Shown: in pieces, positions 1-64,000 of the stretch | How positions within the stretch are numbered: the stretch's first letter is position 1 | How the letters are laid out: each line of letters begins with the position of its first letter | Assembly: GCA_041879355.1 (NCBI GenBank) | Contig: CP089922.1 | Coordinates: 2,912,498 to 2,976,497, forward strand | Direction of reading: 5' to 3' | DNA length: 64,000 nt | Source: Cyanobacteria bacterium LVE1205-1 | GTDB lineage: Bacteria > Cyanobacteriota > Cyanobacteriia > CAIUCS01 | Notes under the pieces: model-generated | Database searches by the model: none | Seen by the model: the letters and a program-made list of their open reading frames with translations, nothing else | Told to the model about the DNA's origin: nothing | Translations under genes and position numbers: made by a program

Positions 1-133
1 TTGGGCTCTTGCCGGCAAAAAAGTAGATGCTGTGCACAAGTCGAACAATCCCCATACAAAAATCATGAACAGTAAGTGCCCCATTCCATGGACGGCGTTA
101 GCGATGAAAACGGTCGGCTGATTTTGTTTCATG
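1..133 (-). CDS. Partial CDS (5' end only; continues beyond window start). Hypothetical membrane protein.
   Basis: The reverse complement of 1-133 translates to MKQNQPTVFIANAVHGMGHLLFMIFVWGLFDLCTAS..., a hydrophobic helix, with no stop before the window edge. No family was recognised. Confidence 0.3.
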
Positions 134-675
134 GGGTACTTGAGGGAATTTAATGGACTACAACAGTTTTTCAGGAACAACCTCACACCAGAAGCATTCC
201 TTTTGGTTCTAAAAACCAAGAACTACTTCAATTTTAAACCCATCTCTCCATAAAACTTGTCAATTAAATTGCAAACTATTGCAATTCATGAATATGAGTA
301 AAGAGACAAAAGATTAAGGGGAGTTAAATGCTAGTTTCATAGTTAGGTGCAACGAAGGCTAGCTCCTTACAGCTTTCGGTTAAGGAACTATCAGGAATTG
401 GGTCTGTACCTCCTACCCATATCCGGTTATCACACAATTTTATTCAATCTTCTTGAATTTTCTAATGGGGCTATCAACGGGGTACTTCAGTCAAAACGGA
501 AGGGTTCAGTCTGGGTGCTCTGTAGAGTCAAGCTGAATAGTTCAGACGAACTCGGGGAAGTCTTGAATAAAGTAATAAGGTTATAACCATCTTGTCCTAT
601 AGTTGTTTATAGTTTATCTGTTCACTTTTGCTAAATTTATTTTCTCTTCAAGACGAAATCACCTCTGATTTCGTC

Positions 676-1605
676 TTATTGTGCATTTGGAGGCAAAATT
701 TCCAAGGTTCCGTGATGGGAATCTAAATGTGCCATTAGCCCCACAGGCAATGCTGCGTTCGGTCCATCATGCCCAAAGGGTAACCCAGAGACAATCGGGA
801 TGGATAAATCCCCCAGGCGATCTTGTAATACCTCCGCCACGGATAAACTGGGTTCGGATGTATGGCATCGGGTAAATCGTCCTAGGGCAATCCCCCGAAC
901 CCCGGTCAAGGCTCCCGTCATGCGCCACTGGCTTAACATGCGATCCAGTCGATAGGGCGGTTCGAGTTCGTCTTCAAGTGCTAGAATCACATTCTTTAAA
1001 TCGGGTTGGATAGGGGTATGGAGAATGGAGGTGGCAACGGCTAAATTCCCCGGGAGCAGTAACCCGGTAGCATGGGTGGGAGCTGATGGGTTATACCACC
1101 CCTCTCCCGTTAAAATTGGCAGGGGTTGGATGCCTTCTACCCAATTGATTAATCGGTCTACAGACCATTGGGGTTCCAACCCCAATGTACTAAGTAATGG
1201 ACCATGAACCCCTGAGATACCCTGGGTTGCCAACCCCCATAGTAACGCCGTAATGTCTGAAAATCCTATTATCCATTTGGGTGACACCGACGGCCACTGC
1301 CAATCTTCAAGCAGTCGATTCCCTCCATAGCCCCCCCACCCACACAGTATCCCTCGACAGTCTGGATCAAGAAGAGCTGCTAATAATTGGTGACGACGAT
1401 GGGAGTCAGTTCCTGCCAGGTAACCCCACTGTTCTTCAACCCCTGCCATAATTTCGACTTCATACCCCCGGGATCGCCATCGGTGAACCCCTTGCCAAAC
1501 AGGAGATTCTGATGATAACCCCCCTGTTCGGGATACCCCGCTAGGGGCAATAACTCGTAATCGATCGCCCGGTTGGAGGGGAGCAGGGCAATGGCAAGGC
1601 AACAT
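676..1605 (-). CDS. LD-carboxypeptidase (peptidase S66, LdcA/MccF-like muramoyltetrapeptide carboxypeptidase)
   Basis: 309 aa ORF. It carries the GFSDITALL nucleophile-elbow motif and the overall S66 layout (GYGG...LEDWQW). Confidence 0.7.
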   Translation of the reverse strand: MLPCHCPAPLQPGDRLRVIAPSGVSRTGGLSSESPVWQGVHRWRSRGYEVEIMAGVEEQWGYLAGTDSHRRHQLLAALLDPDCRGILCGWGGYGGNRLLEDWQWPSVSPKWIIGFSDITALLWGLATQGISGVHGPLLSTLGLEPQWSVDRLINWVEGIQPLPILTGEGWYNPSAPTHATGLLLPGNLAVATSILHTPIQPDLKNVILALEDELEPPYRLDRMLSQWRMTGALTGVRGIALGRFTRCHTSEPSLSVAEVLQDRLGDLSIPIVSGLPFGHDGPNAALPVGLMAHLDSHHGTLEILPPNAQ

Positions 1606-1622
1606 AGGAGAGATGCTAGGGG

Positions 1623-3781: not shown

Positions 3782-4357
3782 GTGCGGAAAGTTGGGAAAC
3801 CGAGTCTTTTTAGAGCGTGGAGGAACGACGACACCAGCGAATTTATTCGCCTACCGCCTTTAAGCCTGAGAATATTAGTTGGTCATCCTTTATCGTGGAT
3901 GGGCGCAAACTTGAATCTATTAACCAGTGGTTCAACAAAGAGAATGCGGCGTTGCAGTCTATTAAAGACTTACAGGGAATTAAGCAACTCACCCAATGTC
4001 AATCGAGACTGTATATTAACCGCAGCAGCCAAGTTAGAGACGATTTAAACAAGGCGGCTAGACTGATTATCCACCATCGACACTAAAATTGAACGGCTGA
4101 TTGTGGGCTTCAATATTGGGATGAAAGATGGTATCAATAGTCGCAATCATCAAAACGTTGTCCAGATCCCATTTCATTCTTTGAGAAACACGCTTAAATC
4201 TCTCTGTGAGGGATATGGGTTAGTCTATCAAGAACAAGAGGAATCGTATAAAGGATATTTGATTAATTCAGATACTAACGGTGCTGCGAATATTGGACGT
4301 AACAGTAAGCAGAATGGTTTTACCAGACTGTCTATAGGCTATTTGGCACAGTCGTGA
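3782..4357 (+). mobile_element. tnpB: Degraded IS200/IS605-family TnpB (OrfB) remnant. C-terminal part is present, split over three frames.
   Basis: Three ORFs (3782-4048, 3817-4086, 4103-4357). The third ends ...DTNGAANIGRNS..., the RuvC-III-like TnpB C-terminal signature. No intact N-terminus and no tnpA. Confidence 0.55.
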
Positions 4358-4558: not shown

Positions 4559-5601
4559 ATGTCCCCCTCCCATGGTGGAAACTTGTCTTGGGCTGCGTCT
4601 CTAGCTGGATGTAGTCCATCCCATCTGCTTGATTTTTCAGCTAGTATCAACCCCATGGGTCCCCCCGAAGCAGTATTGGTTGCCATTCAAAATAGTTTAC
4701 AACAGTTATTATCCTACCCCAATCCTGATTATTCCCAATTATGTGACGCAATTGCGGATTATCATGGTCTATCACCCCAGTGGGTTCTGCCTGGAAACGG
4801 ATCAGCGGAACTTCTCACCTGGGCTGGGAGAGAATTGGCTGCATTGCCCCAAACCCATTTATTTACCCCTGCCTTTGGAGACTACTTTCGAGCAATTCGG
4901 GCTTTTGAGGGTCAGATTGTTACCCACCCTCTAACACCACCCTTTCTTCAAATACCCAAACTACCCAATGGTTCAGGTCAATCGGGTTTATTGATTAACA
5001 ATCCCCATAACCCCACCGGGCTGTTACGAACCTGTGATGAACTATTGCCTTATTTGAATCAATTTGCCTTAGTGGTGGTAGATGAAGCATTTATGGATTT
5101 TCTACCCCTGAAGAACAGCAAAGCCTCATTGATTCCATTGAGCAATATCCAAATTTAGTTATTCTACGATCGTTCACAAAATTCTATAGTTTGCCTGGAT
5201 TACGAATTGGTTATGCCATCGCCCATCCCGATCGCCTTCGGTTATGGCGAACTTGGCGAGACCCCTGGCCAGTGAATCAGTTAGCCGTGGCGGCGGCGAT
5301 CGCTGCTTTGCAATCTAAAGAATTCCAAGCCAAAACTTGGATTTGGTTAAACAATACCCGTTGTCAATTGTGGCAGAGTTTAAACGATATTCCCCATTTC
5401 ACCCCCTATCCCAGTTCAGCCAACTATATCCTAGTCAATTCCCATTTTTCTGTTGGTCAATTACAACTACGGTTATTAAAACACCATCAGATTTTAATTC
5501 GTGACTGCATCAGTTTCCCAGAATTGGGGGATCACTTTTTCCGTATTGCCGTTCGCACCCTAGAAGACAATCAAAGGTTAATCAATGCCATTTTAGGGTA
5601 A
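4559..5601 (+). CDS. cobD: Threonine-phosphate decarboxylase CobD (class I/II aminotransferase fold). Frameshifted at a C-run near 5105-5108.
   Basis: N-terminal HGGN motif, NNPHNPTG, and RSFTKFYSLPGLRIGY (the PLP-lysine region). Frame 1 from 5086 reads FSTPEEQQSLIDSIEQYPNLVILRSF, which continues the 4559 frame after a single-base indel in CCCC. Confidence 0.75.
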
Positions 5602-6469: not shown

Positions 6470-8207
6470 GTGAGAACAGTTATGGTAAGTTTTTTGTGCC
6501 GGGTAGGGTTAGGAATTGGGGTTTCAATGACTGTCATGGGAACCTCTACCATCGTTTTAGCCAATGAACATTCCAATTTAACCATTGACCATATTCCCGA
6601 CCCTTCATTTCCACCGAATGAAGAGTTGGGCATCCCCTCCTTAAAAGCCGTAAATTTCACCACTACGGGGATAACACCAACTGTTCAGGCTCAGCATCGT
6701 TCCATAAAAGAAAATCAATCATCCACAGTGTCATCTTCTGATATTAGACCCCACTTGGTGGTTCAGTCTACCCAACGAACCGATACTTCTCCCAGTTCAC
6801 TGAATAATCCAAATTTACTTGAATCCCCCACCCAACCCATTGAGGTGAAAATTCAGCGTACCCAGGCAATTACCCTCCAAGAGTCCATCAATTTAGCTCG
6901 TCGTAATAATCCTTCATTACAAATTAGTGCCTTACAACTAGAACGGAGTCGCTCCGCTGTCACAGAGGCTAAGTCAACCCTGTTTCCTACAGTCAGTTTT
7001 CAAACTGCCGTCACTCGGGAAGTAAGTGCCACAACTCAATTAGTCAATACCCGTCTGCAATTAAATGGAGGAACCCCAATATCCACTGGTTCAGGGATTG
7101 GTATTATTAGCGGTGATCCGAACGTCAATCGGTTCTTAAATAGTACCTTAGAACTCAGTTATGCCTTATTCACTTCAGGAAAAAGAGATGCAACAATTCG
7201 GGCGGCTGAAGGGCAGTTGCGTATTAGTCAATTAGACTATCAAATCCGCATGGCAGAATTACAGCTTGACATCACTGAAGACTATTACGGCTTGCAAGAT
7301 GCCAATGAAAGCGTCCGTATCGCCAAAGCCGCGGTTACCAATGCTGAAAAAAGCCTAGGGGATGCCCAAGCCCTGGAGCGAGCTGGAGTTGGGACACGAT
7401 TTGCTGTTTTACAGTCCCAGGTTCAATTAGCCAATGCCCGACAAGAATTAGTCCGGGCAGAAAGTAAGCAAGTCATTGCTGGTCGTCAACTTGTTCAACG
7501 ACTGAACTTATCCCAAGATGTGGATATTACCGCAGCTGATAAGGTGGATTTAGCCGGTCAATGGAAACTTGGGTTGGAAGAATCAATTGTGTTGGCATTT
7601 CAAAACAGAGCTGAATTACAGAAACAACTACTGCAAAGTCAGGTTAGTCTACAACAAGCCCGGGCGGCTCTTGCCGCTGTCCGCCCTCAAATTAATGTTT
7701 TTGCCCGATATAACCTTGCAAATAATCTAGACGATAATATTGGATTTGAAGACGGGTATGCAGTAGGGGCTCAACTCACTTGGAATATTTTTGATGGGGG
7801 TAACGCCCAAGCACGCCTTGAACAACAACAACTCAATGCCCGAATCGCAAATACAACGTTTGCCGAAACCCGAAATCAGATTCGCTTTCAGGTCGAACAG
7901 TCCTTTAGTAATCTAGTAGCAAATAAAAAATATTGACACTGCCACCTTAGCCCTCGATCAAGCAAAGGAATCTTTGCGGTTAGCCCGCTTACGGTTTCAG
8001 GCTGGGGTGGGAACCCAAACTGAGGTGATTGATGCTGAAACAGATCTAACTCGGGCAGAAGGTAATCGGGTCAAAGCTATATTGGATTACAATCGAGCCA
8101 TGGCTTCCCTACAACGTGCTACGGCTAGTTTTACAGCAGGGGGTAGAATTGAAAGATGGTCTTTAGGTAGTTTAACTGTTTCAGTGCGTTTGTTCTGTAC
8201 TCTTTAA
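6470..8207 (+). CDS. TolC-like outer-membrane efflux protein. Frameshifted in an A6 run at 7925-7930.
   Basis: ORFs 6470-7936 and 7974-8207. Both show TolC-family repeats (QLE..R......A...LFPTVS; LRLARLRFQAGVGTQTEVIDAETDL). The reading frame is restored by a 1-nt indel in AAAAAA. Confidence 0.6.
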
Positions 8208-10889: not shown

Positions 10890-12080
10890 TTATAAGTTGA
10901 AACGTTGTCGGTCTAAAAGAAGCACTGTATTCAGTAAAACATTTGCTCCCTGTACACATTGTTCAGGGGACGTGTATTCAGTTTCAGCATGACTTACACC
11001 ATGATGACTAGGGACAAAAATCATGCCCATCTCCGTTAGTTTAGCCATTTCTTGGGCATCATGTCCGGCTCGACTGGGTAAGTGGGTATGGGATAAATTT
11101 AACAACTCGCAAGCCTCTTCAATTGCCAACTGAATAGATCCACTTGCCAATGCTGGCTGATTGTTTAAGACGGGTTGCAGATTGATTTTAGTTTGGGTAT
11201 GGTGAGCGATTCCATAGATGTCAGATTCCAATGTTGCCATCAAGTCATCTAAATTATTTTCTGATAAATCTCGAATATCCAGGGACATTTCCACAAAACC
11301 TGGAATAGTATTGGGGACGTTGGGTTTCACTTCAATTTTACCCACCGTTGCCACTTGATTACCGGGTAAATTACCAAGGCGGTTTATATCCAAAATCACC
11401 TGGGCAGCCGCAATAAGGGCATCATGACGGAGGGGCATTGGGGTAGTACCGGCATGACTGGACTCCCCTTCAATGGTAATTCTATAACGCCGTTGCCCCA
11501 CCACCCCGGTCACAATCCCAATGGAAGTGCCAGCCTGTTCCAGAACTGGTCCCTGTTCAACATGGAGTTCTAAAAAGGCAGTGAGGGTGTGGGGATCCCG
11601 TTTGGCTTGGTGAATTTGTTGCCAATTGCCCCCAATGCTATTTAAACAGGTTTGAATGTCTTTACCCTCTATCAATCCATAGGAGTCCAGATTTGGGTTA
11701 ATGTGACCCGCCATGGCTTTGCTGCCAATCATGGTGCCTTCTTCATCGGTGAAGACCATAACTTCCAGCGGATGGTTGAGGGGGAGTGACTGCTCTTGAC
11801 AAGAGCGGACTACTTCTAAAGCCGCTAATACCCCATACACTCCGTCATAATGTCCGGCATTGGGAACCGTATCAAGGTGAGAGCCCATGGCAATGGCGGG
11901 TCGATGGGAATGGCGACTGGGGTAATAGCCAATGATATTGCCACCCCCATCAACCCTAACCCCCATGCCGGCTTCAACCATCCATTGTTGGATGAGTTGC
12001 CGTGCTTGTCGGTCTTCTCCACTATAGGCTAACCGTTGTACCCCCCATTGGGGAGTTGACCAATGGTGGCAAGGGTCATG
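10890..12080 (-). CDS. M20-family amidohydrolase (allantoate amidohydrolase / N-carbamoyl-L-amino-acid hydrolase type). Frameshifted in a C6 run at 12041-12046.
   Basis: Fits the M20/AmaB pattern with a dimerisation domain. The true N-terminus MTLATIGQLPNGGYN(R)LAYSGEDRQARQ is recovered by a 1-nt indel in the homopolymer. Confidence 0.75.
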   Translation of the reverse strand, partial: HDPCHHWSTPQWGVQRLAYSGEDRQARQLIQQWMVEAGMGVRVDGGGNIIGYYPSRHSHRPAIAMGSHLDTVPNAGHYDGVYGVLAALEVVRSCQEQSLPLNHPLEVMVFTDEEGTMIGSKAMAGHINPNLDSYGLIEGKDIQTCLNSIGGNWQQIHQAKRDPHTLTAFLELHVEQGPVLEQAGTSIGIVTGVVGQRRYRITIEGESSHAGTTPMPLRHDALIAAAQVILDINRLGNLPGNQVATVGKIEVKPNVPNTIPGFVEMSLDIRDLSENNLDDLMATLESDIYGIAHHTQTKINLQPVLNNQPALASGSIQLAIEEACELLNLSHTHLPSRAGHDAQEMAKLTEMGMIFVPSHHGVSHAETEYTSPEQCVQGANVLLNTVLLLDRQRFNL

Positions 12081-12302: not shown

Positions 12303-13411
12303 CTAAAAAGGGGGAACCTCCACCCAAGACCTGCGGTGGTCCGACTCACGGGCAAGATCCATTAAAAGTTGGGAATAAACCCCTTCTTTCAAGGAAGGAA
12401 CCGGGTTCTGTCCAGATTCAATTGCCTCCACCCATCTATCGATCATCCCAATGAAGGGGGCAAGCCGCCCATCCCCATAGGTTTGGGGGAATGACAATCG
12501 TTCCGGGATATGAACCTCTGTTAAATTATCCTCCCCAGTGGCTGTCCAAAGCTGAAACCCATGGACATAATCGTTTTGATTGCCACTGCCTAGAATAATG
12601 GTGCCGCGATCGCCATATACCTCAACCCAATGCCCCCGACCATGGTGGGTAACAGCACTCAGATTAATGTGACAGGGAACCCCATCCATCAACTCCAAGG
12701 TAAGACTAGCACTATCCTCTGCATCAACGGTTTTCATCTCCCCCGTCAGGGGATCGGGGCGAGTTGGGATAGAGGTGGATAGAAAAGCGGAGAGCCGTTT
12801 TATTCCACCAAATAACCAATGGACATAATCAAAGGTATGGGAACCCAAGGCACCGAGGCAACCTCCCCCCAGATTCTTACTAGAGTACCAGTTCCAGGCT
12901 CGCATGGGATTGGAACGACTGGACATGAGCCAGTCTATTTGAATGAGCCGTTTTTTCCCCACAAAACCACTGTCTAACAGCTCTGCCAAATATTGCCAGG
13001 CAGGAACAGCCCGATACTCAAAGTCAACCAACACCCGAACCCCCTCCTTGATAGCTAATTGATGGAGTTCCTGCGCTTCCGGGGTTGTCAACGTGACTGG
13101 TTTTTCCAGCAACAAATGTTTGCCAGCCCCGATGATGGCTTTCCCCATCTCGTAATGGAGAAATGGGGGGTGGACAGACTAACTGCCTGCACCTGAGGGA
13201 GTGCTAGTAAGTTGGAGAGATGGGCACAGGCATGGGGAATTTCATAGGTGTTTGCAATTGCCTTTGCCGTTTCCATTTCCCGGTGATAAACTGCCACAAC
13301 GTGGGTATGGGGATGAAGTTGGAAGCCAGGAATATGGACTTTTTGTCCAAATCCCGTACCCACCACACCGACTCCTACAGTAAGTTGTTTAGAGGGTGAC
13401 ATAGTTCCCAT
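12303..13411 (-). CDS. Gfo/Idh/MocA-family NAD(P)-dependent oxidoreductase. Frameshifted in a G6 run at 13165-13170.
   Basis: Rossmann N-terminus VGVVGTGFGQKVHIPGF. After frame correction it reads TPHFLHYEMGKAIIGAGKHLLLEKP, the canonical EKP motif. Confidence 0.75.
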
Positions 13412-13501
13412 AGTTGTTTAGAGACACAAGGGTAGACTGTTCCGATAATCAGGTAAGGGTTGCATTTTGCATGTTGCCATCATGGGAATTGGGGCGGTAT
13501 T

Positions 13502-14343
13502 TCAATCAAAGTCAGGGCAACCAGGGATATCGACTAAAATCAGGGGACGTTTTTCCAGAAATGCCTCTTTACCCTCACTTCCCTCTTCGGTCATGTAATA
13601 CAGTAAAGTTGCATTTCCTGCTAATTCCTGGAGTCCTACCTGCCCATCACAGTCAGCATTAAAGGCAGACTTGAGACAACGGATGGCAATTGGGCTTTTT
13701 TCTAAAATTTCCAGTGCCCACCGAACTCCTTCTGGTTCCAATTGTTCTATGGGAACCACTGCATTGACCAACCCCATTTCTAATGCTTGCACTGCATTGT
13801 ATTGACGACAAAGATACCAAATCTCCCGTGCCTTTTTCTGTCCAACAATTCGTGCCAAGTAACTGGCACCAAACCCTCCATCAAAACTACCGACTTTCGG
13901 TCCAGTTTGTCCAAAAATGGCATTCTCAGCGGCTATGGTTAAATCACAAAGGAGATGAAGCACATGTCCCCCCCAATGGCATACCCGGCAACCAAGGCAA
14001 TCACCACTTTAGGGATGGAACGGATTAATCGTTGCAGATCCAGTACATTTAATCGTGGCACACCCGACTCATCCACATATCCTGCCTGTCCCCTGACACC
14101 TTGATCCCCTCCTGCACAAAAAGCATACTGACCATCCCTATGGGGTCCCCCACCCGTCAGTAAAATTACCCCAATTCGTTGGTCATCCCTAGCATTTCCA
14201 AATGCTTCACACAGTTCTACCACAGTATGGGGGCGAAAAGCATTACGCTTATGGGGGCGGTTTATGGTAATTTTGGCTATCCCATCTGCCTTTTCGTAAC
14301 TAATATCTTCATAAACTTTGGCGATTTGCCATTGAATTTGCAT
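13502..14343 (-). CDS. menB: 1,4-dihydroxy-2-naphthoyl-CoA synthase MenB (phylloquinone pathway). Frameshifted in a C7 run at 13968-13974.
   Basis: Crotonase fold with the characteristic MenB residues ([31 protein letters not shown] after correction). Confidence 0.85.
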
Positions 14344-14437
14344 AAGAAAATCAACAAAGCTTGTAAATGGTTGATATTATCCCTGTTTTCAATGTCACCG
14401 GTTCAATAACTGTTACTTTTCTTGATGAGTCCATCCC

Positions 14438-15886
14438 ATGACTACCCCAAATACCCCGTTTTCAAGTCCCTTAAGTTCCCAGTGTCATCCCCCATCGGAT
14501 TCCATACTCCCCTTCCATATTCCATCATTGTTAAAGCGTTATCGTTCTGGTCAGTCTAGCCCACCGCAAATCATTCGGATGGTGTATGAGCGGATTCGCC
14601 AGTATGGTGATCCTGCGATTTGGATCACCCTCGCTTCATTGGAAGACAGCCTGAAACAGGCAGAATCCATTACTGGGCAAACTGACCTACCCCTTTATGG
14701 AATCCCGTTTGCCATCAAAGACAACATTGATTGGAGCGGGGCACCCACCACCGCTGGTTGTCCCCGTTATACCTACTTCCCTGACCATTCAGCCCCAGTG
14801 GTGGAGCGATTAATTGCAGCCGGTGCTATTGCCATTGGTAAAACCAATTTAGACCAATTTGCCACAGGTCTGGTTGGAACCCGAACCCCCTATGGCGTTT
14901 GCCGCAACCCTTTCCATGCTGATTATATTCCCGGCGGGTCTAGTAGTGGTTCCGCCTGCGCCGTTTCCGCAGGCTTAGTGAGTTTTGCCCTTGGAACGGA
15001 CACAGCCGGTTCTGGTCGGGTTCCAGCAGCCTTTACGAATATTGTGGGGTTAAAACCAAGTTGCGGACGTATCAGTACCCGAGGGCTAGTACCAGCGGTT
15101 CGCACCCTGGATTGCGTCTCAATTTTTACCTTAACCGGTGAGGAAGCGGCGGAAGTTTTGGCAGTGGCTGGACAGTTTGATCCATTGGATCCATTTGCCA
15201 AACCCATACCAGTGTATGAATTACCCAGTTTGAATCAATTGCGGGTTGGAGTACCCTACCCGCATCAGTTAAACTTCTTTAACAATTCTGATGCAGAAAC
15301 TAACTATGCCAATGCCCTAAATGTTCTTAAAGACAGAGGGGCTACCTTTCATGAGTTTGACTTTGACCCATTTCATGCCACTGCATTGATGCTCTATGAA
15401 GGGGCGTGGGTTGCAGAACGTACCGCTGCCGTGGGGGAATTCATCAATACCCAATCCGAAGGGGAAACCAACTCTATTGTGCGTTCAATTATCAATGGTG
15501 GCTATGGATATCGGGCAATGGATGCCTTTCAAGACTACTATCGGTTGATGGAGTACCGTCGTCAAGCCCAGTCAACCTGGGGGTTGGTGGATATTTTGGC
15601 ACTGCCGACCACAGGCACCATTTATACAGTAAAGGACATTGCCAATCATCCGTTGGAATTGAATCGAAATTTAGGACGGTATACCAACTTTGTTAACTTA
15701 ATGGATCTATCAGCCGTTTCAGTTCCCAGTGGGTTTCAGGCAAATGGATTGCCAACGGGAATTACTTTTATGGCACAATCGGGATACGATGAAGCTTTGT
15801 GCAAGCTTAGTCAGGAATTTCAACACATGATGAACTTGCCGGTTGGTGCCCTCCATGTGATACCTTATTCCACAGTTGTATCTTAA
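14438..15886 (+). CDS. Allophanate hydrolase, N-terminal amidase-signature (AS) domain
   Basis: 482 aa. GKTNLDQFATGLVG...GGSSSGSACAV...GTDTAGSGRVPAAF is the AS-family signature. It ends at TAA 15884-15886. Confidence 0.7.
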   Translation: MTTPNTPFSSPLSSQCHPPSDSILPFHIPSLLKRYRSGQSSPPQIIRMVYERIRQYGDPAIWITLASLEDSLKQAESITGQTDLPLYGIPFAIKDNIDWSGAPTTAGCPRYTYFPDHSAPVVERLIAAGAIAIGKTNLDQFATGLVGTRTPYGVCRNPFHADYIPGGSSSGSACAVSAGLVSFALGTDTAGSGRVPAAFTNIVGLKPSCGRISTRGLVPAVRTLDCVSIFTLTGEEAAEVLAVAGQFDPLDPFAKPIPVYELPSLNQLRVGVPYPHQLNFFNNSDAETNYANALNVLKDRGATFHEFDFDPFHATALMLYEGAWVAERTAAVGEFINTQSEGETNSIVRSIINGGYGYRAMDAFQDYYRLMEYRRQAQSTWGLVDILALPTTGTIYTVKDIANHPLELNRNLGRYTNFVNLMDLSAVSVPSGFQANGLPTGITFMAQSGYDEALCKLSQEFQHMMNLPVGALHVIPYSTVVS

Positions 15887-17753: not shown

Positions 17754-18380
17754 AGATCAACCATTAACCTGAAATAGACAATTCATGGAAACGGGAACGT
17801 ACATCATCAAGGGTAAAGACAGATTGAAAATTTAAGTCATGGTGGCTGTAAAGCTCCTTTCCCCCTGTTGCCGGTCCACAAGGCATAAAATCTGGCGAAC
17901 CCCATACCCTGCTGCCTGCAAACGTTCAACAGCGATCAATGCGGACTTGCCAGTGGTGACCACATCTTCCAATACCACCACCTCTGTACCCGCAGTAAGG
18001 GCTGGACCCTCAATAAATGCTTGAGTTCCATGCTCCTTTGATGCTTTACGAACGATGAGAGGGGTAATGGATCGCTGTTGGTAAGCAGCCACCACACTGA
18101 CAGCCGTAACCAAGGGGTCAGCCCCCAAAGTTAACCCTGCCACTGCTTCAACTGAAGACGATATTAATGATAACAATATTCTTCCCACAGCTACACCCCC
18201 TTGGGGATGTAACGTTACCTGCTTACCATTAATATAATAGGAACTTCGTTGCCCCGACGAAAGAAGAAAGTCTCCCTCCCGATAGGCAACTTGGCAAAAA
18301 AGATCCAATAGTTGTTGACGTAACTCAAGTAAATCACCCTGAACGGGGAATTGAGGCAGAGGATAGAATGGGGAAGACAT
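17754..18380 (-). CDS. pyrE: Orotate phosphoribosyltransferase PyrE. C-terminus frameshifted in a C5 run at 17871-17875.
   Basis: PRPP-binding motif VVVLEDVVTTGKS. The alternative frame after the C-run gives ...ELYSHHDLNFQSVFTLDDV, a PyrE-like C-terminus. Confidence 0.8.
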
Positions 18381-19439: not shown

Positions 19440-20478
19440 AAAACAAAATCGCCAGTGAAATGGGGATTCACGCAACCCAGATTACTCAATGGAAAAAACA
19501 GGCTCAGGAAGGACTCAAGGAGATCTTTGCGGATCGCCGAGGGAAGAGCCAGAGCCAGGAACCCTTAATTGAGAACCTTTACCAGAACATTGGTCGGCTC
19601 CAAGTGGAACTGGAGTGGTTGCAAAAAATCTGGTCTTACCTCTTGAATCAAAGCGGGAACTCATTGAACCCGCAAACCGAGAGATCAGCATTGTGCGTCA
19701 GTGCGAATTGCTGGGACTCAATCGAAGTAGCGACTACTACGAAGCAGCCAGGGAAAGCTCACATAAGGAGTACCTGATGGGAAAGTTGGATGAGCAGTAT
19801 ACCCAAACTCCCTTCTACAGGGTATTGGGAATGACGGAAGTCCTGCGAGCCCAAGGAGAAGAGGTCAATCCTAAACAAGTCCGTCGTCTACTCAGGGTAA
19901 TGGGTTTAGAAGCTATCTATCCCAAACCCAAAATCTCATCGCTAGGTGAGAATAGTCGTCGCTATCCCTATCTGCTCAGGGAAAAAGCCATTGAGCGTCC
20001 GAACCACGTTTGGAGTACTGACATCACATACATTCCACTGGACAAGGGATTTATTTACCTTGTAGCGGTGATTGACTGGTACAGCCAGTATGTCCTCTCA
20101 TGGGAAGTCTCCAATACCCTGGATGTCCACTTTTGTCTGGATGTTCTGGAAAGTACTCTCTCTCAAGGGATGCCAGAGATTTTCAATACCGACCAGGGCA
20201 GCCAATTTACCAGTCTTGCTTTTACTGACCGTCTACTCAAAGGAGGGATAACAATCAGTTAGGATGGGCGTGGTCGAGCCCTAGACAACATTTTTGTGGA
20301 ACGGATTTGGCACTCATTGAAATACGAGGAGCTGTACCTAAAGTCCTACAGGTCTGTGCCAGAGGCAATTCAAGGGATTGGGGACTATTTCAGATTTTAT
20401 AACCACGATCGTTTACATCAGTCGTTGGATTATCAGACACCGGCTATGGTTCACAGAAAAGGCAATGCCTCCTTGTAA
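19440..20478 (+). mobile_element. IS3-family insertion sequence remnant. orfA is 5'-truncated, and orfB (DDE integrase) is internally frameshifted.
   Basis: ORF 19460-19777 is an orfA leucine-zipper part (GIHATQITQWKK...LQVELEWLQK). ORFs 19615-20262 and 20296-20478 are the DDE core (HVWSTDITYIP...DNIFVERIWHSLKYEE). About the first 30 aa of orfA and the left inverted repeat are missing. Confidence 0.75.
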
Positions 20479-20774: not shown

Positions 20775-21404
20775 ATGGCAACTACATCCGAAGACGTATG
20801 GCGACTTTTAGCCGAATTAGCAACTGCTCAAGCTGAATTAACTGCTTCTCAAAAAGAAACTGACCTACTATTGAAGGAAGTCAGTCAACAACAGAAGGAA
20901 AACGAGCGACGACAACAGGAAAATGCCCAACAACAGAGGGAAAATGCCCAACAACTCAAAGAATTAGGACGGCAAATTGGTGGACTTGGTGCCAAATTCG
21001 GCAGCTTTACCGAAGGACTTGCCCTTCCTTCAATGGAAACGATTCTCAGACAACGGTTGGGTATGGAAGTGATCAGTCCCAGTGTGCGAGTGAGTAAAGA
21101 TGGAAAACACCTAGAAATTGATGTTCTTGCCTATACTAATGGTGAGCTAAATACTGCCTATATCGTCGAGGTTAAAAGTCATGGTAGAGAGGAATCCATT
21201 ACACAATTAATAAGTATTTTGCAACGGTTTCGCAGCTTTTTCCCTGAACACAAAGATAAAAAACTCTATGGCATATTAGCGGCGGTGGATTTATCCCCAG
21301 AATTACGGGAAAAAATTCTACAAGAAGGGTTTTATGTGGCTCGGATTCATGACCAGGTATTTGAATTAGATATTCCCGATACTTTTCAACCTCAAGCTTA
21401 TTAA
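20775..21404 (+). CDS. Paralog 1. N-terminal coiled coil plus C-terminal Hjc-like PD-(D/E)xK nuclease-fold domain (possibly DUF3782-type). Function unknown.
   Basis: 209 aa. The N-terminus is heptad-rich with (QQQRENA)n. The C-terminus reads HLEIDVLAYTNGELNTAYIVEVKSH, matching D-x15-E-x-K of PD-(D/E)xK nucleases. Confidence 0.6.
   Translation: MATTSEDVWRLLAELATAQAELTASQKETDLLLKEVSQQQKENERRQQENAQQQRENAQQLKELGRQIGGLGAKFGSFTEGLALPSMETILRQRLGMEVISPSVRVSKDGKHLEIDVLAYTNGELNTAYIVEVKSHGREESITQLISILQRFRSFFPEHKDKKLYGILAAVDLSPELREKILQEGFYVARIHDQVFELDIPDTFQPQAY
20911..20951 (+). repeat. In-frame 21-bp tandem repeat (CAACAGAGGGAAAATGCCCAA), 2 units
   Basis: It encodes (Q)QQRENA within paralog 1. The same array has 4 units in paralog 2. 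Confidence 0.8.
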
Positions 21405-21504
21405 AACATCAAAGGCGATCGCTTTCACCCTGATGTTGTGAGGGATGATTGCTTGTATTTAGCGGTAAATATCCTTTCAATACCCAATATCAAGAACAAT
21501 CACC

Positions 21505-21659
21505 CTGGTTGACTGACAAAAGTTGTACGCCCTCACCCCCAACCCCTCTCCTAGGGGGCGAGGGGAGCCGAGCCACCCCTCCGCTTCCCTCGCCCATCGG
21601 GCGAGGGCTAGGGTGAGGGCTTTCAGGGTTTTGGCTGAGAAGTTTTGTCAGTCAATCAG
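21505..21659. mobile_element. MITE family A, copy 1. 17-bp TIRs CTG(G/A)TTGACTGACAAAA; 9-bp TSD ACAATCACC at 21496-21504 and 21660-21668.
   Basis: The TIRs were read directly. The internal sequence is a long GC-rich palindrome (CCCTCACCCC...GGGTGAGGG). It is absent from the otherwise identical downstream region of paralog 2. Confidence 0.7.
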
Positions 21660-22573: not shown

Positions 22574-22935
22574 AACATCAAAGGCGATCGCTTTTGGTCT
22601 GATGTTGTGAGGGATGATTGCTTGTATTTAGTAGTAAATATCTTTTCAATTAGTTTCCCCAGCGAGTGGGAACCAGATACTCCAGCAATCGGAACTGACG
22701 TTGAATATGAATGGACAACATTATCTCCGCCTTTCCAATCACTCCCAAAACCAATATAGTTTATACTATCAACCAATGAATACTGAATTTATTAAGAAAT
22801 TTAATATATACACGGACACTTTATAGTATTAACACGGTTTAATTTAAGGCTGATTGGGTTCAGGGGTTAAGTTTAACTTGATTAAAAAAGCGATTGCCCT
22901 AGGAGTCAACCATCAAAGCTGGGATTCTAAAACAG

Positions 22936-52061: not shown

Positions 52062-52499
52062 TCAGAATAATTAGGATTTTCCAACTGTTACAGTGTAGTT
52101 ATAACTTATTCATTGACGGCTGAGCAAGTTCAGATAGTTAGACTAATGTCTTATCCACCTAGCTGGACACAACACTGAATCAGTGCATACTTTAGTATCC
52201 ATTACTTAACTGGTAAATTAATACTAAGTAAAGTTCAATTCCAAAAACCCGATTGTATTCAATTGGGGCTTATGGCTATGGATTTAAGGTTCGTGATTTC
52301 TGGATGGATGTCATGAATAAGTTGTAATTGCACGTTATTCCCTGATTGTTTTATTGTTACTAATCATTTCAGTAGAAAATAAATGGGATATCTGGCATAC
52401 TGCTAAGACAGTTATGGGCAAATTGCCCTACTTTTGCTAGTTATTTAGAATTATGCCATTACCAATTCCATCACCTGCCCCCCTCCTCCTATTTCAGCT

Positions 52500-55255
52500 T
52501 TGCCAACTGAAACGGTTGAATGTACTCTTAGTAAAAACGATCGCCCAATCACTGTTTGGCAGGGTTCCCCCCGACCGATTCAGTTCACTAAATCAAGTCA
52601 AACAATTGGTAAGGGTGAGGTTTTAACTGATGTCACAACATCTCCTAAGTCCACCAAACCAGTTAATTCTTCCCTAAAGTGCCACTGGAATAGTAATCCC
52701 CTCACCCTATCCCAAGAACCAAAACCTGAATTCTCTGCCCATTCTGTTGGAGCAAGTTTTAATAAAATTAAACCGTCTAAGGTTTCCATAAAGCCTGCTT
52801 CATCACTTGCATCCAACACGCCTTCTAGTTCAGTGTTGCTGCTGGGTCAGTTTACTATTTCAAGTAACAGTGAGCCCATTGCGGTCAATGGTTCCAATCC
52901 CCCTTCCCACTTTGTCAACCCTAAGGAAGGGTTCGTAGCACCATCCCATCTGGTCAATACTCCCCTCTCTCCAACCTTAAACCATTCTGTCAATCCTGCC
53001 GAACTCTCTGGTTCCCCAACCATTCCTACCCAACCTCCCATTCAATCTAATCCTGATTTAGATGTTTCACCCTCTTCCCCTTCAAACACTATTACACCCA
53101 CTCCACAACGAGTCATTGAACTCATTGCTGACCGGCAAGACTATGATGCTGAACGACAAGTGGTTACTGCTGCTGGTGCAGTAACCATGAAGTTTGGTGA
53201 CTCAGTTTTAGTGAGTGATTACCTGCAGATCAATCTTAATGAGCAATTAGCTGTAGCCACTGGAAAAGTTACCCTGACTCGACAGGATCAGATTTTACAA
53301 GGAAAACGCCTTGAGTATAACTACTTGCAAGACCGTGGTCGGGTTTTAAACGGTCGGGGTTCCATTAACCTGCAAACTGCAAACTCAGATTTTAGTTCCA
53401 ATCAACCTAAGGATAGTCAAACTGGTGTCTTCCCTGATTTAGCATTGAGTAGCCGCTTAACCAGGAATCAACCATTCGCCGGGTCAAGTTCGTTGGTTGT
53501 TGACTCTAGTTCCAAGCTTGGTACTACCACGACTCCAACGAATCAAGCCTCTACACGACCTCAAGCTATTACCAGTTCGGGAGACTTGAGCTTTACCGCA
53601 GGGCTGGGCAGCAATTATGCTGATACTAGCGGTGATGGCGGGGGGATTAATCGGCTTAGGTACGAAGCTGAACAGGTTGATTTTAATGCCGATGGTTGGG
53701 ATGCTATTAATGTGAGGGTAACCAATGATCCGTTTTCTCCCCAGAATTTGAATTACGCTCGAACCGGGCTAAGTTGGTAAGATTCAGTCGAACCCAAGAC
53801 GAATTAACAGCATTTGCCCCCAAAATTGTATTTGACCAAAACCAAGTCATACCCTTACCCCGTGCCCGACTATTACTTGACCGGGAAAGACGAAATCCCA
53901 TCCCCCTTGGTATTGGAATAGATGAACGGGATCGGGGTGGTCTTTATGTGGAATGGGCACTGGATCCGTTCCGGGTTGGTGAAAATGGGCGATTTAGTTT
54001 AACGCCTCAATTTTTCATCCAACGGGCGATCGCGGAGCGTAATTTTAATATTGCTGACCCTTCAGTTTATGGAGTTGTTAGTCGTTTTAACTATTCCTTC
54101 AATCCACAGTTGTCCATAGATTCAAACTTTAGTTTGTCCAGTCTTAATCTGGATGACTTTGAAAATCAATTTCGAGCAAATATACAAGCCCGACAGTTGG
54201 TGGGAAACCATGTGTTGGCATTAGATTATAGCTATCGTGATCGACTTTATAATGGTTCCTTAGGATTTCAAGATGTCCAAAGTAGCCTTGGGTTAATTGT
54301 AACTTCTCCAACATTTACCGTTGGTGTTAACCTTCCAATCTATACAATACATCATAGCCTCAGCATTAATTTCCCTCAACAATGGAATGCTGACAGATTG
54401 AGACCAATGGAGAATTTATTGGGATTGGGGTCTCGGCATCGGACTGTATTATTTCCTTATCAACACAACTTCTCTGCTTATGCAGGAGCAAATCTATGGA
54501 AAATGGATGTGTTCCGCTATACCTCCATATTCAACCCATCTAGCACGGTCAACAATGATGGCTTTAATATCTCATACCAAATTGGTGCTCAACTCATTGA
54601 AGCGGATACGGATCGTCCAGAATTATTATCCACCGGTCGGATTAATAACCGGATTGAACTAACCCGGTATCAAGGTAGTTCCACCATCAGTCGTAGTTAT
54701 ATTCTTTGGCAGGGCTCTGCTTTACCCCCAACCCCTGAGGAAGGGCTACGGTTTTCTCCTCGCCCTGTTGTTCCCTATGTGCAATTATTTGGTAGTGTTA
54801 CCGGAACTGGGAGTATTTATAGCCAAGGAGATCATCAGTTTACCCTCAGGGGTACGGTTGGGTTGCAGGGGCAATTTGGGCATTTCTCTCGATCAGCATT
54901 TGATTTTACTGGCTTTAATGTCAGCCTTTCCCGTAGCATTCAGGCTGGTCAGTCTCCCTTTCTCTTTGACCGTGCTGTTGATCCCTATGTGTTATCAGCG
55001 GGGATTATTCAACAAGTCTTTGGTCCTATTCGCATTGGTTTTCAGACATCCATTAATTTGGAAAATATGCAGGAAATCAGCCCCGACTATATCCTGGAAT
55101 ACCAACGACGCAGTTATAGCGTTACTATTCGTTACAACCCTGTTCAACAAATTGGTGCTCTTACATTTCGGGTGAGTGACTTTAACTGGTTTGGCAACTC
55201 AGAGTTGTTTGAAGGCAGTGGTGTAAAATTGGTTGACGATGGACTCCGTCGATAG
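52500..55255 (+). CDS. LptD/OstA-like outer-membrane LPS-assembly protein. N-terminal OstA domain plus C-terminal beta-barrel. Frameshifted near 53766-53780. Start uncertain.
   Basis: OstA-N-like segment ADRQDYDAERQVVTAAGAVTMKFGD...ATGKVTLTRQDQILQGKRLEYN. The downstream ORF is rich in alternating amphipathic beta strands and ends with aromatic residues. Confidence 0.5.
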
Positions 55256-55703: not shown

Positions 55704-55871
55704 GTGGCTAACTTAAACTCAACCCGCCTTATAGAGTCTCTGGCGGCAGAAATTGGAGATGGGATTTATTTAGATATTGCGAAATGGCGTTTATATTTAT
55801 CCAACGCCCGTTTACACACTATCTTGGCTGAACGTCTATATCCATTAATGGTGGACGGATTCGTGGAATGA
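55704..55871 (+). CDS. Conserved cyanobacterial small protein (DUF3181-like), GTG start
   Basis: VANLNSTRLIESLAAEIGDGIYLDIAKWRLYLSNARLHTILAERLYPLMVDGFVE. Not in the ORF track. The opposite-strand ORF 55766-56104 is MITE-driven. Confidence 0.45.
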   Translation: MANLNSTRLIESLAAEIGDGIYLDIAKWRLYLSNARLHTILAERLYPLMVDGFVE

Positions 55872-57736: not shown

Positions 57737-58504
57737 TCATCTCTGGGGGACATCCTGCCAACGCCCTGATCCAATGGCTCGTAATGCTTCTTTAAAGATT
57801 ACATCACCAGTGTATAGGGCTCGTCCTACTATCACTCCGGTAACCCCTAAGGGTTCCAACGTTAAAAGGCTTAGGAGATCACTGGTGGAACCCACTCCTC
57901 CAGAGGCAATGACAGGGATTGATAGGACGTGAACCAGTTTTCTAAGGGCATCCTGATTAACCCCCTCCAAGGTGCCATCCCGTTGAATATCGGTATAAAT
58001 AATACCTGACACCCCTATTTGTGCCATTGCTTCAGCTAAATCAGAGGCGAAAACAGCAGATGTTTTCACCCATCCTCGAGTTGCTACCTTACCGTCACGG
58101 GCATCAATTCCAACTAAAATTTTTCCTGGAAATTCCCCACATAGCTGACGGACAAAATCTGGGTTTTCTACAGCGGCAGTCCCAATAATTACCTGATGCA
58201 CCCCGAGATCAAAGAGGGCGGCAACGGAAGCGCGATCGCGTAAACCGCCCCCCACTTGAATTTCAACTGACCCAGATTGGGACTTTAATGTCTTTACAAT
58301 GGATCCAATGACAGATAAATTAACTGGGTATCCAGCCTTAGCACCATCCAAATCAACGATGTGTAAACGTTGAGCACCTTCATGTACCCACCGTTGGGCA
58401 ACTATCACAGGATCACAACTAAAGGTTTCCACCTGTTCATAATTTCCCTGATAGAGCCGGACACAACTACCATTCAGTAAATCAATTGCGGGAATAATAT
58501 CCAT
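57737..58504 (-). CDS. hisA: ProFAR isomerase HisA
   Basis: [17 protein letters not shown]...VGGGLRD...[15 protein letters not shown], a TIM-barrel. Confidence 0.9.
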
Positions 58505-58522
58505 AATGATGAAATTAGAGGG

Positions 58523-60563: not shown

Positions 60564-60793
60564 ATGATTCAACGCGGTTCTAAAGTCCGTATTCTTCGCA
60601 AAGAATCCTACTGGTATAACGAAGTGGGCACTGTTGCATCCGTAGACCAAAGCGGAATCAAATATCCAGTAATTGTCCGTTTTGATACGGTCAACTACAA
60701 CGGATTCAGTGGTAGTGCCGGGGAGTTAATACCAACAACTTTGCTACCACTGAACTAGTGGAAGTTGCACCACCTCCAGCGAAGAAAAAATAA
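60564..60793 (+). CDS. psaE: Photosystem I subunit IV PsaE. C-terminus frameshifted in a G4 run at 60720-60723.
   Basis: [45 protein letters not shown]. The corrected frame gives ...[24 protein letters not shown]. Confidence 0.85.
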
Positions 60794-62138: not shown

Positions 62139-62154
62139 TCTTCATTTGGTTAAT

Positions 62155-63297
62155 TTAACTGGACACCAAAGCTTCATTCAGGTAAAACGCTACCTTTTGC
62201 TGTTGTTCCTCCGTCAATTCTGGAAACATGGGTAATGAAATGACCTCGCGACACACTTGTTCGGCAATTGGAAAATGACCAGCGCCATAGCCTAAAGATT
62301 GGTAAACAGACTGTAGATGTAAGGGTAAAGGGTAATAAATCATTGAACCAACACCGTGATTTAGCAGGAACTGACGCACATGATCCCGATGGTTACCCTG
62401 CCCTGTGACCATTGATTCTGTGACCCGAATGGTATACTGATTCCAGACGCTCTGCCCTTTCTTGAGAACCTCTGGTAGTGCTATCCCCGATATATGCTCA
62501 AGTTGTTGCTGATACCGATTGGCAGCTACGGTTCGATGATAGTTCCAATCAGGTAAGTATTTTAATTTAATCTGTAAAATAGCTGCCTGTAACGCATCTA
62601 ACCGGCTATTGACCCCAATTTCCTCGTGGTAATACCGGGTCTTACTACCATGTTCCTGTAACATTCTCACTTTAGCCGCAAGGTGGGGGTCATTGGTTGT
62701 AATGGCACCTCCATCGCCACAGCCTCCCAAATTCTTAGTGGGGTAAAAACTGAAGCAACCGATATGTCCTATACTTCCCACAGATTGATTTGCCCAAACT
62801 GCCCCTGCAGACTGGGCGCAGTCTTCAACTACATAAAGATTATGGCTTCTGGCAGTTTGCATTAAAGCAGACATATCTACAGGTTGACCAAATAAATGCA
62901 CTGGTATCACTGCCCGGGTACGGTCAGTAATGGCATCTTCAATTTTGGTAACATCCATATTGAAGGTGTGGGGATTAATATCGACAAAAACCGGGGTTGC
63001 CCCCACGGCGCTAATAACCTCAGCAGTGGCAAAAAATGTGAAAGGGGTGGTGATTACCTCATCCCCGGAACCAATTTGTAGCGCTCTCAGGGCTAAATAA
63101 AGGGCATCAGTACCTGAATTGCAGGCTACACATTCTGAAACACCCACATAATCGGCAAACATTCGTTCAAATGAACGAACCGTTTCTCCCCCAATGTAAG
63201 CACCCGAAGCTAGTACTGCCAACACTGCTCTTTCTATTTCCAGTTGAATTGTTTTATATTGGGATACCAAATCCAACAGAGGAATTTTATTCACCAA
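62155..63297 (-). CDS. DegT/DnrJ/EryC1/StrS-family PLP-dependent sugar aminotransferase
   Basis: 380 aa with family-typical segments (GDEVITTPFTFFAT; SFYPTKNLG). Confidence 0.8.
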   Translation of the reverse strand: MVNKIPLLDLVSQYKTIQLEIERAVLAVLASGAYIGGETVRSFERMFADYVGVSECVACNSGTDALYLALRALQIGSGDEVITTPFTFFATAEVISAVGATPVFVDINPHTFNMDVTKIEDAITDRTRAVIPVHLFGQPVDMSALMQTARSHNLYVVEDCAQSAGAVWANQSVGSIGHIGCFSFYPTKNLGGCGDGGAITTNDPHLAAKVRMLQEHGSKTRYYHEEIGVNSRLDALQAAILQIKLKYLPDWNYHRTVAANRYQQQLEHISGIALPEVLKKGQSVWNQYTIRVTESMVTGQGNHRDHVRQFLLNHGVGSMIYYPLPLHLQSVYQSLGYGAGHFPIAEQVCREVISLPMFPELTEEQQQKVAFYLNEALVSS

Positions 63298-63489
63298 TAA
63301 CCTCCTGTTCTTACTATTGTTAATAGTTTATCTTTTTGACATCCAATTGAACAATTTCTGGGGAGCAACATCACTGGTTTTAGAGGATTTTCACTCCTAT
63401 TTTGATTAGCATGGCTATTCACCACACATACATGCTCGAGCTTTTATTCAGGATCCTGAGATTAAACTGTTCTAAACTAGGACCTTGAG

Positions 63490-64000
63490 CTACCCCATAA
63501 CAGACATACAGTGGCAAAAGATGCTCTTCCCTAGGATGGCAATATCTTGACCCTGAGCTTTACTCCACTCTACTAGCATCTGGGTTCTTTTCTCCTCCGT
63601 ATACCCACGGTTTGAACAAACGTCCATTAACCACTGCTCAAATGAATGATTGAGTTGACAAGACTCAGCAGTATCAGATAAAAAAATGCCTTGAAATTGT
63701 GAAACGAAAACCCTGAACCAATTACTAAGACATGTTGTCGACTCAGCCCCTTGAGGGCACGCCCAATTTTGATGAGATAAGAGGAATCTAGGGTATTTAC
63801 GAGCGACATCTGAACACATGGAATGGTTGCCCCTGGGTACATAATTTTGAGTGGAACGAAAACACCGTGATCAAACCCCCTGGTTGGATCTAGTTTTGCA
63901 TCAATGACCTTAACCACTGGGGAGAATTGTTGCGTCGTCACTGGAATTATGCTCTAGGGTAGAGATACTGGTTACTTCGTACCATACTTGAACCTAGTGC
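63490..64000 (-). CDS. Class III extradiol ring-cleavage dioxygenase (YgiD/DODA-like). Partial (N-terminus beyond the window). Frameshifted.
   Basis: RGFDHGVFVPLKIMYPGATIPCVQMSL and ...LVIGSG..HN, then the 63490-63819 frame (...FEQWLMD...). Confidence 0.5.

Follow-up and report, generated by a model that had tools for sequence, protein, structure and literature searches.

Interrupted genes at mononucleotide runs in a 64-kb window of the Cyanobacteria bacterium LVE1205-1 genome: very probably consensus errors of a long-read assembly

The window analysed here, a stretch of 64,000 nucleotides from the metagenome-assembled genome of Cyanobacteria bacterium LVE1205-1, contains roughly 61 genes, about 23 of which are affected by changes of reading frame (Table 1). 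Multiple gene breakage had already been recognised in a preliminary description of this DNA, where the count was set too low, at a minimum of about 18. Several single Pfam domains are divided between adjacent ORFs, such as Aminotran_1_2 (profile positions 2-193 and 223-361), ECH_1 (2-104 and 106-245) and GFO_IDH_MocA (2-72 and 80-120), and the OEP domain and HhH-GPD plus NUDIX_4 are likewise split over neighbouring ORFs. Core genes are among those hit, in the window psaE, hisZ, hisA and the menB-like gene.

Table 1. Frame-changing sites in the window and the corresponding run lengths in independent same-species assemblies
Gene or product	Position	Window	Independent assemblies	Effect or remark
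cobD-like, class I/II aminotransferase (4559-5601, + strand)	5105-5108	C4	C5 in 6/6	gene split; repaired 347 aa
OEP/TolC-like	7925-7930	A6	A8 in 6/6	first break
OEP/TolC-like	8139-8143	G5	G6 in 7/7	second break
devA-like ABC ATPase, 239 aa	8679-8684	G6	G7 in 7/7 and in sister assembly	split; error private to window
M20 peptidase	12041-12046	C6	C7 in 7/7	truncated; repaired 416 aa
Gfo/Idh/MocA oxidoreductase, 369 aa	13165-13170	G6	G7 in 6/6	split
MenB-like enoyl-CoA hydratase	13543-13546	G4	G5 in 6/6	C-terminus altered
MenB-like, 277 aa	13968-13974	C7	C8 in 6/6	split
malG-like ABC permease, 285 aa	17530-17535	G6	G7 in 6/6	split
pyrE-like phosphoribosyltransferase, 205 aa	17861-17865	C5	C6 in 6/6	truncated
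DUF760	18703	T	TT in 6/6	directly after a C6 run; 96 aa vs 116 aa
IS3-family transposase (19460-20262)	19623-19628	A6	A7 or A8	run at start of orfA/orfB overlap; may be natural
mutY (HhH-GPD / NUDIX_4 fragments)	23692-23697	G6		at fragment junction; G7 expected from protein continuity, outside independent-assembly coverage
DPRP/FeS-BCP photolyase-related, 516 aa	25617-25622	G6	G7 in 6/6	split
CRR7	29675-29677	T3	T4 in 8/8 and in sister assembly	error private to window
CRR7	29728-29732	C5	C6 in 8/8	repaired 86 aa
nrtA-like NMT1_2 substrate-binding protein, 451 aa	30364-30368	G5	G6 in 8/8	split
cobB-like CbiA/GATase_3, 487 aa in references	35142-35144	C3	C4 in 12/12	first of three breaks
cobB-like	35781-35784	G4	G5 in 11/11	second break
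cobB-like	35924-35927	C4	C5 in 12/12	third break
DUF218, 199 aa	37827-37830	G4	G5 in 12/12	split
Hypothetical protein, 521/523 aa	43860-43865	A6	A7 in 2/2	last residues only changed
GT4 glycosyltransferase, 401 aa	48142-48147	C6	C7 in 3/3	split
lptD-like DUF3769/OstA_2	52478-52483	C6	C7 in 5/5	N-terminal break
lptD-like	53739-53742	C4	C5 in 5/5	main break; repaired 934 aa
DUF3181, 104 aa	55860-55861	TT	single T (GGATCG) in 4/5, in L176 and in sister assembly	insertion private to window; breaks gene
hisZ, 424 aa	56499-56503	G5	G6 in 4/4	split
hisA	57745-57749	G5	G6 in 4/4	C-terminus altered, 255 aa vs 262 aa
psaE	60720-60723	G4	G5 in 1/1 (one reference only)	C-terminus corrupted
LigB/ygiD-like (63.3-64.0 kb, minus strand, runs off window end)	63680-63686	A7		at frame change; A8 expected from protein continuity

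The window DNA was aligned to over 20 independent assemblies (from ENA, JGI, NCBI and Logan) that belong to the same species and share 96-99% nucleotide identity with it. These assemblies come from distinct samples and represent strains about 2% diverged, so that most sites were compared within the species and not within the strain; their k141- and NODE-type contig names suggest a short-read origin. Window proteins were matched exactly on the 3.28 Mb contig of LVE1205-1 at NCBI and on contig Ga0496538_1292 of JGI 3300045937, which is apparently a second assembly of the same sample (sister assembly). In this sister assembly psbB is also hit, just outside the window.

Where the window shows fragments, the independent assemblies contain single intact genes. 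At 26 sites the window lacks one base of a mononucleotide run (at one of them, two bases), and every independent assembly covering each of them has the longer run and the intact gene. One additional gene-disrupting site consists of the extra T at 55860, where the sister assembly, the Logan contig L176 and four of the five other references have a single T. Once these 27 sites are repaired, the ORFs match the reference gene lengths, up to start-codon choice, and repaired PsaE matches the 76-aa protein of the reference L179 residue for residue. The A6 at 43860-43865 may be either an error or a real difference. Two further genes were assessed from protein continuity. The addition of one G to mutY gives an unbroken alignment to MutY structures (residues 32-379 against 6q0c). 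The ygiD-like gene, identified by its LigB hit and lying outside independent-assembly coverage, has at least two frame changes, the second of them near 63545-63560, outside any run of at least four bases.

The proposal that conserved genes are interrupted at homopolymer runs was borne out by this DNA alignment at most of the sites listed in the preliminary description, and the runs named there for the cobD, tolC-like, devA-like, M20, Gfo, menB, malG-like, FeS-BCP, nrtA-like, DUF218, GT4, hisZ and psaE genes were correct. In three other cases the gene was correctly named but the site was not: the pyrE break lies 10 nt from the position first given (17871-17875, which reads CCGGT), the G7 of cobB at 35729-35735 is G7 in all references, and the lptD-like break placed at about 53766 is in fact about 28 nt away, with another one in the N-terminal part. 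It had also been stated that every site falls in a run of at least four bases, which holds for most of them but not for C3 at 35142, T3 at 29675, T1 at 18703 and T2 at 55860. Sites absent from the earlier list are those at 8139-8143, 13543-13546, 18703, 29675-29677, 29728-29732, 43860-43865, 52478-52483, 55860 and 57745-57749. The comparison with orthologues in relatives that had been recommended, run here on the same-species assemblies, supports the earlier reading as systematic indel error rather than pseudogenisation.

The defects follow a defined pattern. The gene-disrupting sites comprise 26 shortenings and one insertion, and G/C runs account for 20 of the 26 short sites. Although G/C runs of at least four bases make up about 4% of the sequence, 19 of the 27 gene-disrupting sites verified against references fall in them, and such clustering is therefore not due to chance; runs of at least three bases hold 25 of the 27, the remaining two being T1 at 18703 and TT at 55860. 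Among runs of three bases in the window, 2 of 1120 G/C runs (0.2%) and 2 of 1329 A/T runs (0.2%) are shorter than in the references. These proportions are 8/347 (2.3%) and 2/414 (0.5%) for four bases, 6/105 (5.7%) and 0/134 (0%) for five, and 7/41 (17%) and 2/39 (5%) for six, respectively, whilst one of the three G/C runs of seven bases is short, this length having no A/T entry. Seen from the references, seven of the nine G/C runs that are seven long read as six in the window. Shortening affects G and C runs about equally. On this reading the consensus under-calls mononucleotide runs by one base, far more for G/C than for A/T and increasingly with length, and each lost base shifts the reading frame and leads ORF callers to split or truncate the gene. 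Judged from this profile, the platform that best fits would be Oxford Nanopore of the R9.4 type with little or no short-read polishing. The error rate at runs truly five long, about 7%, exceeds what a polished nanopore consensus would normally show and points to low coverage or weak polishing.

Selection provides further evidence. The run-shortening indels disrupt a gene in 26 of 31 cases, close to the coding fraction of 84%, whereas only one of the 16 other inter-strain indels does so (Fisher p = 3e-7). The other coding indels are of 3, 6 and 12 bp and in frame, and the remaining inter-strain indels are intergenic, in frame or within mobile-element remnants. The broken housekeeping genes carry run-length changes only, of one base and once of two bases; neither nonsense mutations nor larger deletions were found in the affected genes by alignment to the references, and lesion types other than run-length changes are confined to mobile-element remnants. 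Broken genes have a pN/pS ratio of 0.20 and intact genes one of 0.15, although this comparison says little about very recent events.

Window and sister assembly disagree at seven positions, all of them indels and five of them differences in run length. The window is in error at 8679, 29675 and 55860, where the sister is intact, and the sister is in error at 892, 15433 and 31182. Same-strain evidence is limited to two sites, 48142 and 55860. At the former, the two GT4 fragments match the NCBI-annotated halves XGB39281.1 and XGB39282.1, and the exact repaired protein (P0270), which differs by at least nine residues from every reference compared, is found in a Logan assembly. At the latter, the Logan contig L176 is otherwise equal to the window and lacks the extra T. 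The 249-aa GT4 fragment (P0277) is also encoded on one other JGI contig, which could be a recurrence of the systematic error or a genuine allele. Exact look-up of eight other repaired proteins gave no match, a result that is uninformative either way.

Taken at the level of the sequence comparisons, the gene interruptions in the window are very probably not mutations but errors in the consensus of a long-read assembly. This judgement is based on the longer run and intact gene carried by the independent assemblies at every testable site, on the nature of the defects (nearly all one-base shortenings, concentrated in G/C runs and commoner in longer ones), on their incidence in coding DNA, which is close to background when other inter-strain indels spare genes, on the seven indel sites at which the sister assembly disagrees, and on the existence of the exact repaired GT4 protein, with the strain's own residues, in an independent assembly. 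The interruptions are a known type of sequencing artefact and not a biological feature or gene loss.

Other explanations have been considered. The lineage could be in genome decay, either as a symbiont-like organism or as a mismatch-repair-deficient mutator losing single bases in G/C runs. Mismatch-repair defects raise homopolymer indel rates, most of the frameshifts are common to both available assemblies of the genome and mutY itself looks broken; a MutY defect, however, leads to G:C to T:A changes, not to indels. Genuine decay is very unlikely given the single kind of lesion, the core genes among those hit (including psbB), a pN/pS of affected genes far below 1, the intact form in all independent assemblies covering a site and in the sister at three of the seven disputed sites, and the intact same-strain GT4 allele. 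There is similarly little probability that one population truly carries the shortened G/C runs, being a mismatch-repair-type mutator, possibly polyploid, that has dozens of one-base frameshifts in core genes and survives thanks to intact chromosome copies or expression slippage. Were the loci phase-variable or the population heterogeneous, slipped-strand mispairing would keep both run lengths side by side, and the consensus would have taken the shorter allele. A mixed population could also yield the differences observed between sister and window. Nevertheless, tracts of 3-7 bases are below the typical length of contingency tracts, the genes affected have housekeeping roles rather than surface or restriction functions, the in-frame length is the only one seen at the listed sites in more than 20 independent populations and the direction is always shortening, which makes this possibility highly improbable.

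Finally, the frameshifts could be real and yet be compensated when the genes are expressed, through programmed ribosomal frameshifting or transcriptional slippage. The frame changes do coincide with potentially slippery runs, and one locus, the IS3-family transposase, has the classic layout, with orfB in the -1 frame overlapping orfA. On the other hand, in relatives at 96-99% identity one uninterrupted frame codes for each of these proteins, with no conserved recoding; long A tracts and slippery heptamers are not involved, the runs being short G/C tracts of 3-7 bases; run lengths differ between the two assemblies; and recoding would be required separately in about 23 unrelated housekeeping genes. 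The probability of such an explanation for the window is negligible.

Consensus error has practical rather than biological significance. The density of indel errors in the window amounts to about 45-50 per 100 kb of a public genome, and more than one third of the window genes are fragmented, shortened or labelled as pseudogenes. If the sequence were used uncorrected, psaE, hisZ, hisA, the menB-like gene and cobalamin genes would wrongly seem to be lost, pseudogenes would be overcounted and protein databases would take up spurious short 'hypothetical proteins'. The sites in Table 1, apart from the IS3 run, can be used as a checklist for polishing, and the contrast between coding-blind and gene-sparing indels offers a simple test of artefact versus decay when reads are unavailable.

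In comparison with known systems, the window resembles the pseudogene-rich genomes of symbionts and recently host-restricted bacteria in its many frameshifted conserved genes, but it shows one type of lesion, has core photosynthesis and biosynthesis genes hit and keeps purifying selection intact; besides, no other assembly of the species has its lesions, and these are inconsistent between two assemblies of the same genome. The likeness to IS3-family elements with programmed -1 frameshifting (the orfA/orfB overlap and the A6 run) is limited to one mobile-element gene and does not extend to housekeeping genes. Even there, the zero-frame codons CAA AAA ATC at the A6 run form no canonical slippery heptamer, although the frame offset may be natural. 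Nanopore reads are known to understate homopolymer length, C and G runs being worse than A and T runs (PMC8486125), and homopolymer indels persist into consensus sequences, where they fragment gene calls (PMC9262707). The window differs from this system in that its errors begin already at runs truly 4-5 long and in that one of them, at 55860, is an insertion in a TT overlapping a GATC site. In other respects it is alike, being deletion-biased, rising with run length and worse in G/C than in A/T as in the published R9.4-type profile (PMC8486125), with gene calls fragmented as in nanopore-derived metagenome-assembled genomes (PMC9262707).

The gene interruptions found in the window are almost certainly a known artefact of long-read consensus sequences and not a biological feature. 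Pfam searches revealed single domains spread across neighbouring ORFs, and the same genes are single ORFs in every independent assembly. About 30 indel errors are present in 64 kb, and about 23 of roughly 61 genes are affected. The preliminary description, which had preferred systematic indel error to pseudogenisation, is supported on this point, whereas some of its coordinates and its count of about 18 genes needed correction.

The species is frequent in freshwater metagenomes, and over 20 further samples (ENA, JGI, NCBI and Logan) supplied syntenic contigs, which show 96-99% DNA identity to the window (G+C about 44%), the references being diverged by about 2%. The k141 and NODE names of many of them point to short-read assemblers. 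All independent contigs combined cover positions 1-20150 and 24313-61805. Other searches contributed less: the best match of the genome contig scan was a 4.8 kb contig with 82% protein identity, unfit for comparison at the DNA level, and the metagenome contig scan gave only three close contigs, all of them short (L092, L093 and L158). A homologue search with the C-terminal lptD-like fragment yielded a single match, at 80% identity. When hisA, ChlI and the acetyltransferase were looked up exactly, the JGI sister assembly was the sole match. For UreA, chosen to reach Logan contigs of the same strain around 35142, all matches were long reference contigs, and the 573-aa flavodiiron ORF had no exact match, probably because of a differing start codon. 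Literature searches on LVE1205-1, the JGI identifiers and the SRA run found no paper describing the genome or the sequencing platform.

All indels between window and references were listed from a base-level alignment. At 26 sites every assembly with coverage has a longer run than the window, the difference being one base (two at 7925-7930). The runs proposed from the sequence alone were present for most sites, 13 of them exactly right. The genes named as pyrE, cobB and lptD-like are indeed broken, at other positions than those proposed, and the G7 run suggested for cobB is correct as it is. That list was also incomplete, since about nine more sites lie in tolC-like, menB, DUF760, CRR7, a 523-aa hypothetical protein, lptD-like, DUF3181 and hisA. 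Position 61362 was rejected as a run error: its correction broke ChlI, and the differences at 61358 and 61362 are a pair of real substitutions seen in one reference. When bases were restored at the 26 sites and one extra T was removed, ORF lengths equalled those of the reference genes, up to the choice of start codon; after repair, PsaE has exactly the sequence of a reference PsaE, and CRR7 is back at 86 aa.

Features of the window, with selected sites (run in brackets) and lengths in the references
Feature	Position	Length in references (aa)	Remark
Aminotransferase (cobD-like)		347	
OEP/TolC-like		540/562	
ABC ATPase (devA-like)	8679	239	
M20 peptidase		416/436	
Gfo/Idh/MocA		369	
MenB-like		277	
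ABC permease (malG-like)		285	
Phosphoribosyltransferase (pyrE-like)	17861-17865 (C5)	205	
DPRP/FeS-BCP		516	
NMT1_2 (nrtA-like)		451	
CbiA/GATase_3 (cobB-like)	35142; 35781; 35924	487	
DUF218		199	
GT4		401	
DUF3769 (lptD-like)	52478-52483 (C6); 53739-53742 (C4)	934	
HisZ		424	
HisA		262	
PsaE		76	site rests on one reference
mutY	23692-23697 (G6)		
ygiD-like	63680-63686 (A7); near 63545-63560		minus strand
TnpB (OrfB_IS605) remnant	3864-4349	161	5-bp non-homopolymer deletion in window at 4075
IS3-family transposase (HTH_21, rve, rve_3)	19460-20478		A6 run at 19623-19628; in-frame TAG in integrase domain at 20260-20262
Non-syntenic segment	20200-24312		
DUF3782 paralogues	20886-21481; 22055-22650		596-bp direct repeat, 96% identity
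Inverted repeat, 159 bp	21501-21659; 24103-24261		
Hypothetical protein	31384-31932	334-335 (all references)	182 aa in window
AmpG-region indel cluster	33222-33273; 33496-33498		

Two further genes were judged from the window sequence. mutY belongs to a stretch of 4 kb (20.2-24.3 kb) without synteny in other strains; addition of one G to its run fuses the HhH-GPD and NUDIX_4 fragments, and residues 32-379 of the product align to MutY structures, unbroken across the junction. The ygiD-like gene, of the LigB family (63.3-64.0 kb), extends past the window end and contains at least two frame changes, one at the A7 run and a second outside any run of at least four bases. The breaks in both genes would be consistent with one-base losses.

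By exact look-up, proteins of the window were located on the 3.28 Mb LVE1205-1 contig at NCBI and on one contig of the sister assembly. The latter (JGI 3300045937, contig Ga0496538_1292, 659 kb), apparently from the same sample, has 99.97-99.995% identity to the window and is not the same sequence. Window and sister assembly show seven differences, each an indel: the window is in error in the devA-like gene and at 29675 and 55860, the sister assembly at 892 (S66 peptidase broken), 15433 (amidase broken) and 31182, and 24179 was assigned to neither side. Beyond the window end, sister contig L173 carries psbB (PF00421; 16951-18412) as two parts of 196 and 292 aa, and an ABC permease (13398-15011) in three pieces, so fragmentation goes on outside the window, up to photosystem II. 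The Logan contigs of SRR17230300 agree fully with the window, even at the strain-specific indels near 33222-33273 (L090), except that L176 is without the extra T at 55860. This insertion, the sole one among the errors, converts GGATCG into GGATTCG at 55855-55865, in overlap with a GATC site. As this motif is a common methylation target in cyanobacteria, the error may stem from methylation-related base-calling or polishing.

The two GT4 halves are annotated separately at NCBI (XGB39281.1 and XGB39282.1), which identifies the window as the NCBI version of the sequence. After repair, GT4 differs by at least nine residues from every reference compared, yet it has an exact counterpart in a Logan assembly (P0270). 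Same-strain confirmation covers two sites only. Exact look-up of nine repaired proteins matched GT4 and none of the other eight, misses which are uninformative. The 249-aa C-terminal GT4 fragment recurs, with three residues changed, on a 7650 bp contig of a further JGI assembly (P0277). Either this systematic error arose in a second long-read assembly too, or the split allele is real.

Real genome decay, in which the genes would be truly lost, is highly improbable: the lesions are of one type only, core genes are among those broken, the window and the sister assembly disagree, and an intact same-strain allele exists. Selection argues in the same direction. Among run-shortening indels, which occur irrespective of coding status, 26 of 31 disrupt genes, near the coding fraction of 84%, against one of 16 other indels, in which the window is longer or several bases differ (Fisher's exact test, p = 3e-7). 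The exception is the T at 55860, private to the window; most of the remainder fall between genes, three keep the frame (3, 6 and 12 bp), and two lie in the TnpB remnant and the IS element. Thus real strain differences have been filtered by selection and run shortenings have not. An internal control is given by the small non-homopolymer indels at the AmpG C-terminus (414 vs 418 aa) and downstream, which are real strain differences; L090 matches the first part of the cluster exactly, up to the contig end at 33329. Purifying selection persists, with pN/pS of 0.20 in affected and 0.15 in intact genes, a set in which CRR7 was counted in the wrong frame (one substitution only), and these low values also speak against decay, if weakly so for very recent events. 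Phase variation is no more probable than decay, and recoding during expression is less probable still; against both stand the in-frame genes and the unanimous run lengths in all other populations.

The IS3-family transposase at 19460-20262 is the one locus where a run-associated frame offset may be natural. Relative to orfA, its orfB lies in the -1 frame; the offset coincides with the A6 run, which is A7 or A8 in references, and may be a programmed frameshift. The element borders the non-syntenic segment, and several short-read contigs stop nearby; the segment, containing two DUF3782 genes, mutY and the inverted repeat, is probably a strain-specific rearrangement adjoining the IS element. In the hypothetical protein shortened in the window, 456 bp (152 codons) are absent in frame, with the junction near 31518/31519, either as a real deletion or as an assembly collapse; L090 begins downstream of this junction. 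The TnpB remnant, short even in references, is a genuine mobile-element pseudogene, in contrast to the housekeeping genes.

The consensus artefact is also recognised in its error profile, for which every run of at least three bases was compared with the reference consensus.

Runs shorter in the window than in the reference consensus (shorter/total), by run length in the window
Run length	G/C	A/T
3	2/1120	2/1329
4	8/347	2/414
5	6/105	0/134
6	7/41	2/39
7	1/3	

By reference length, G/C runs are under-called in about 0.6% of 4-mers, 7.5% of 5-mers, 15% of 6-mers and seven of nine 7-mers, as is the single 8-mer. G and C runs are affected about equally, and only two G/C runs, both intergenic, exceed their reference length in the window. 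In nanopore sequencing homopolymer length is underestimated, deletions prevail with longer runs, and C/G runs are called worse than A/T runs (PMC8486125); homopolymer indels persist into consensus sequences and fragment gene calls in metagenome-assembled genomes (PMC9262707). The run-shortening profile of the window is this published nanopore pattern.
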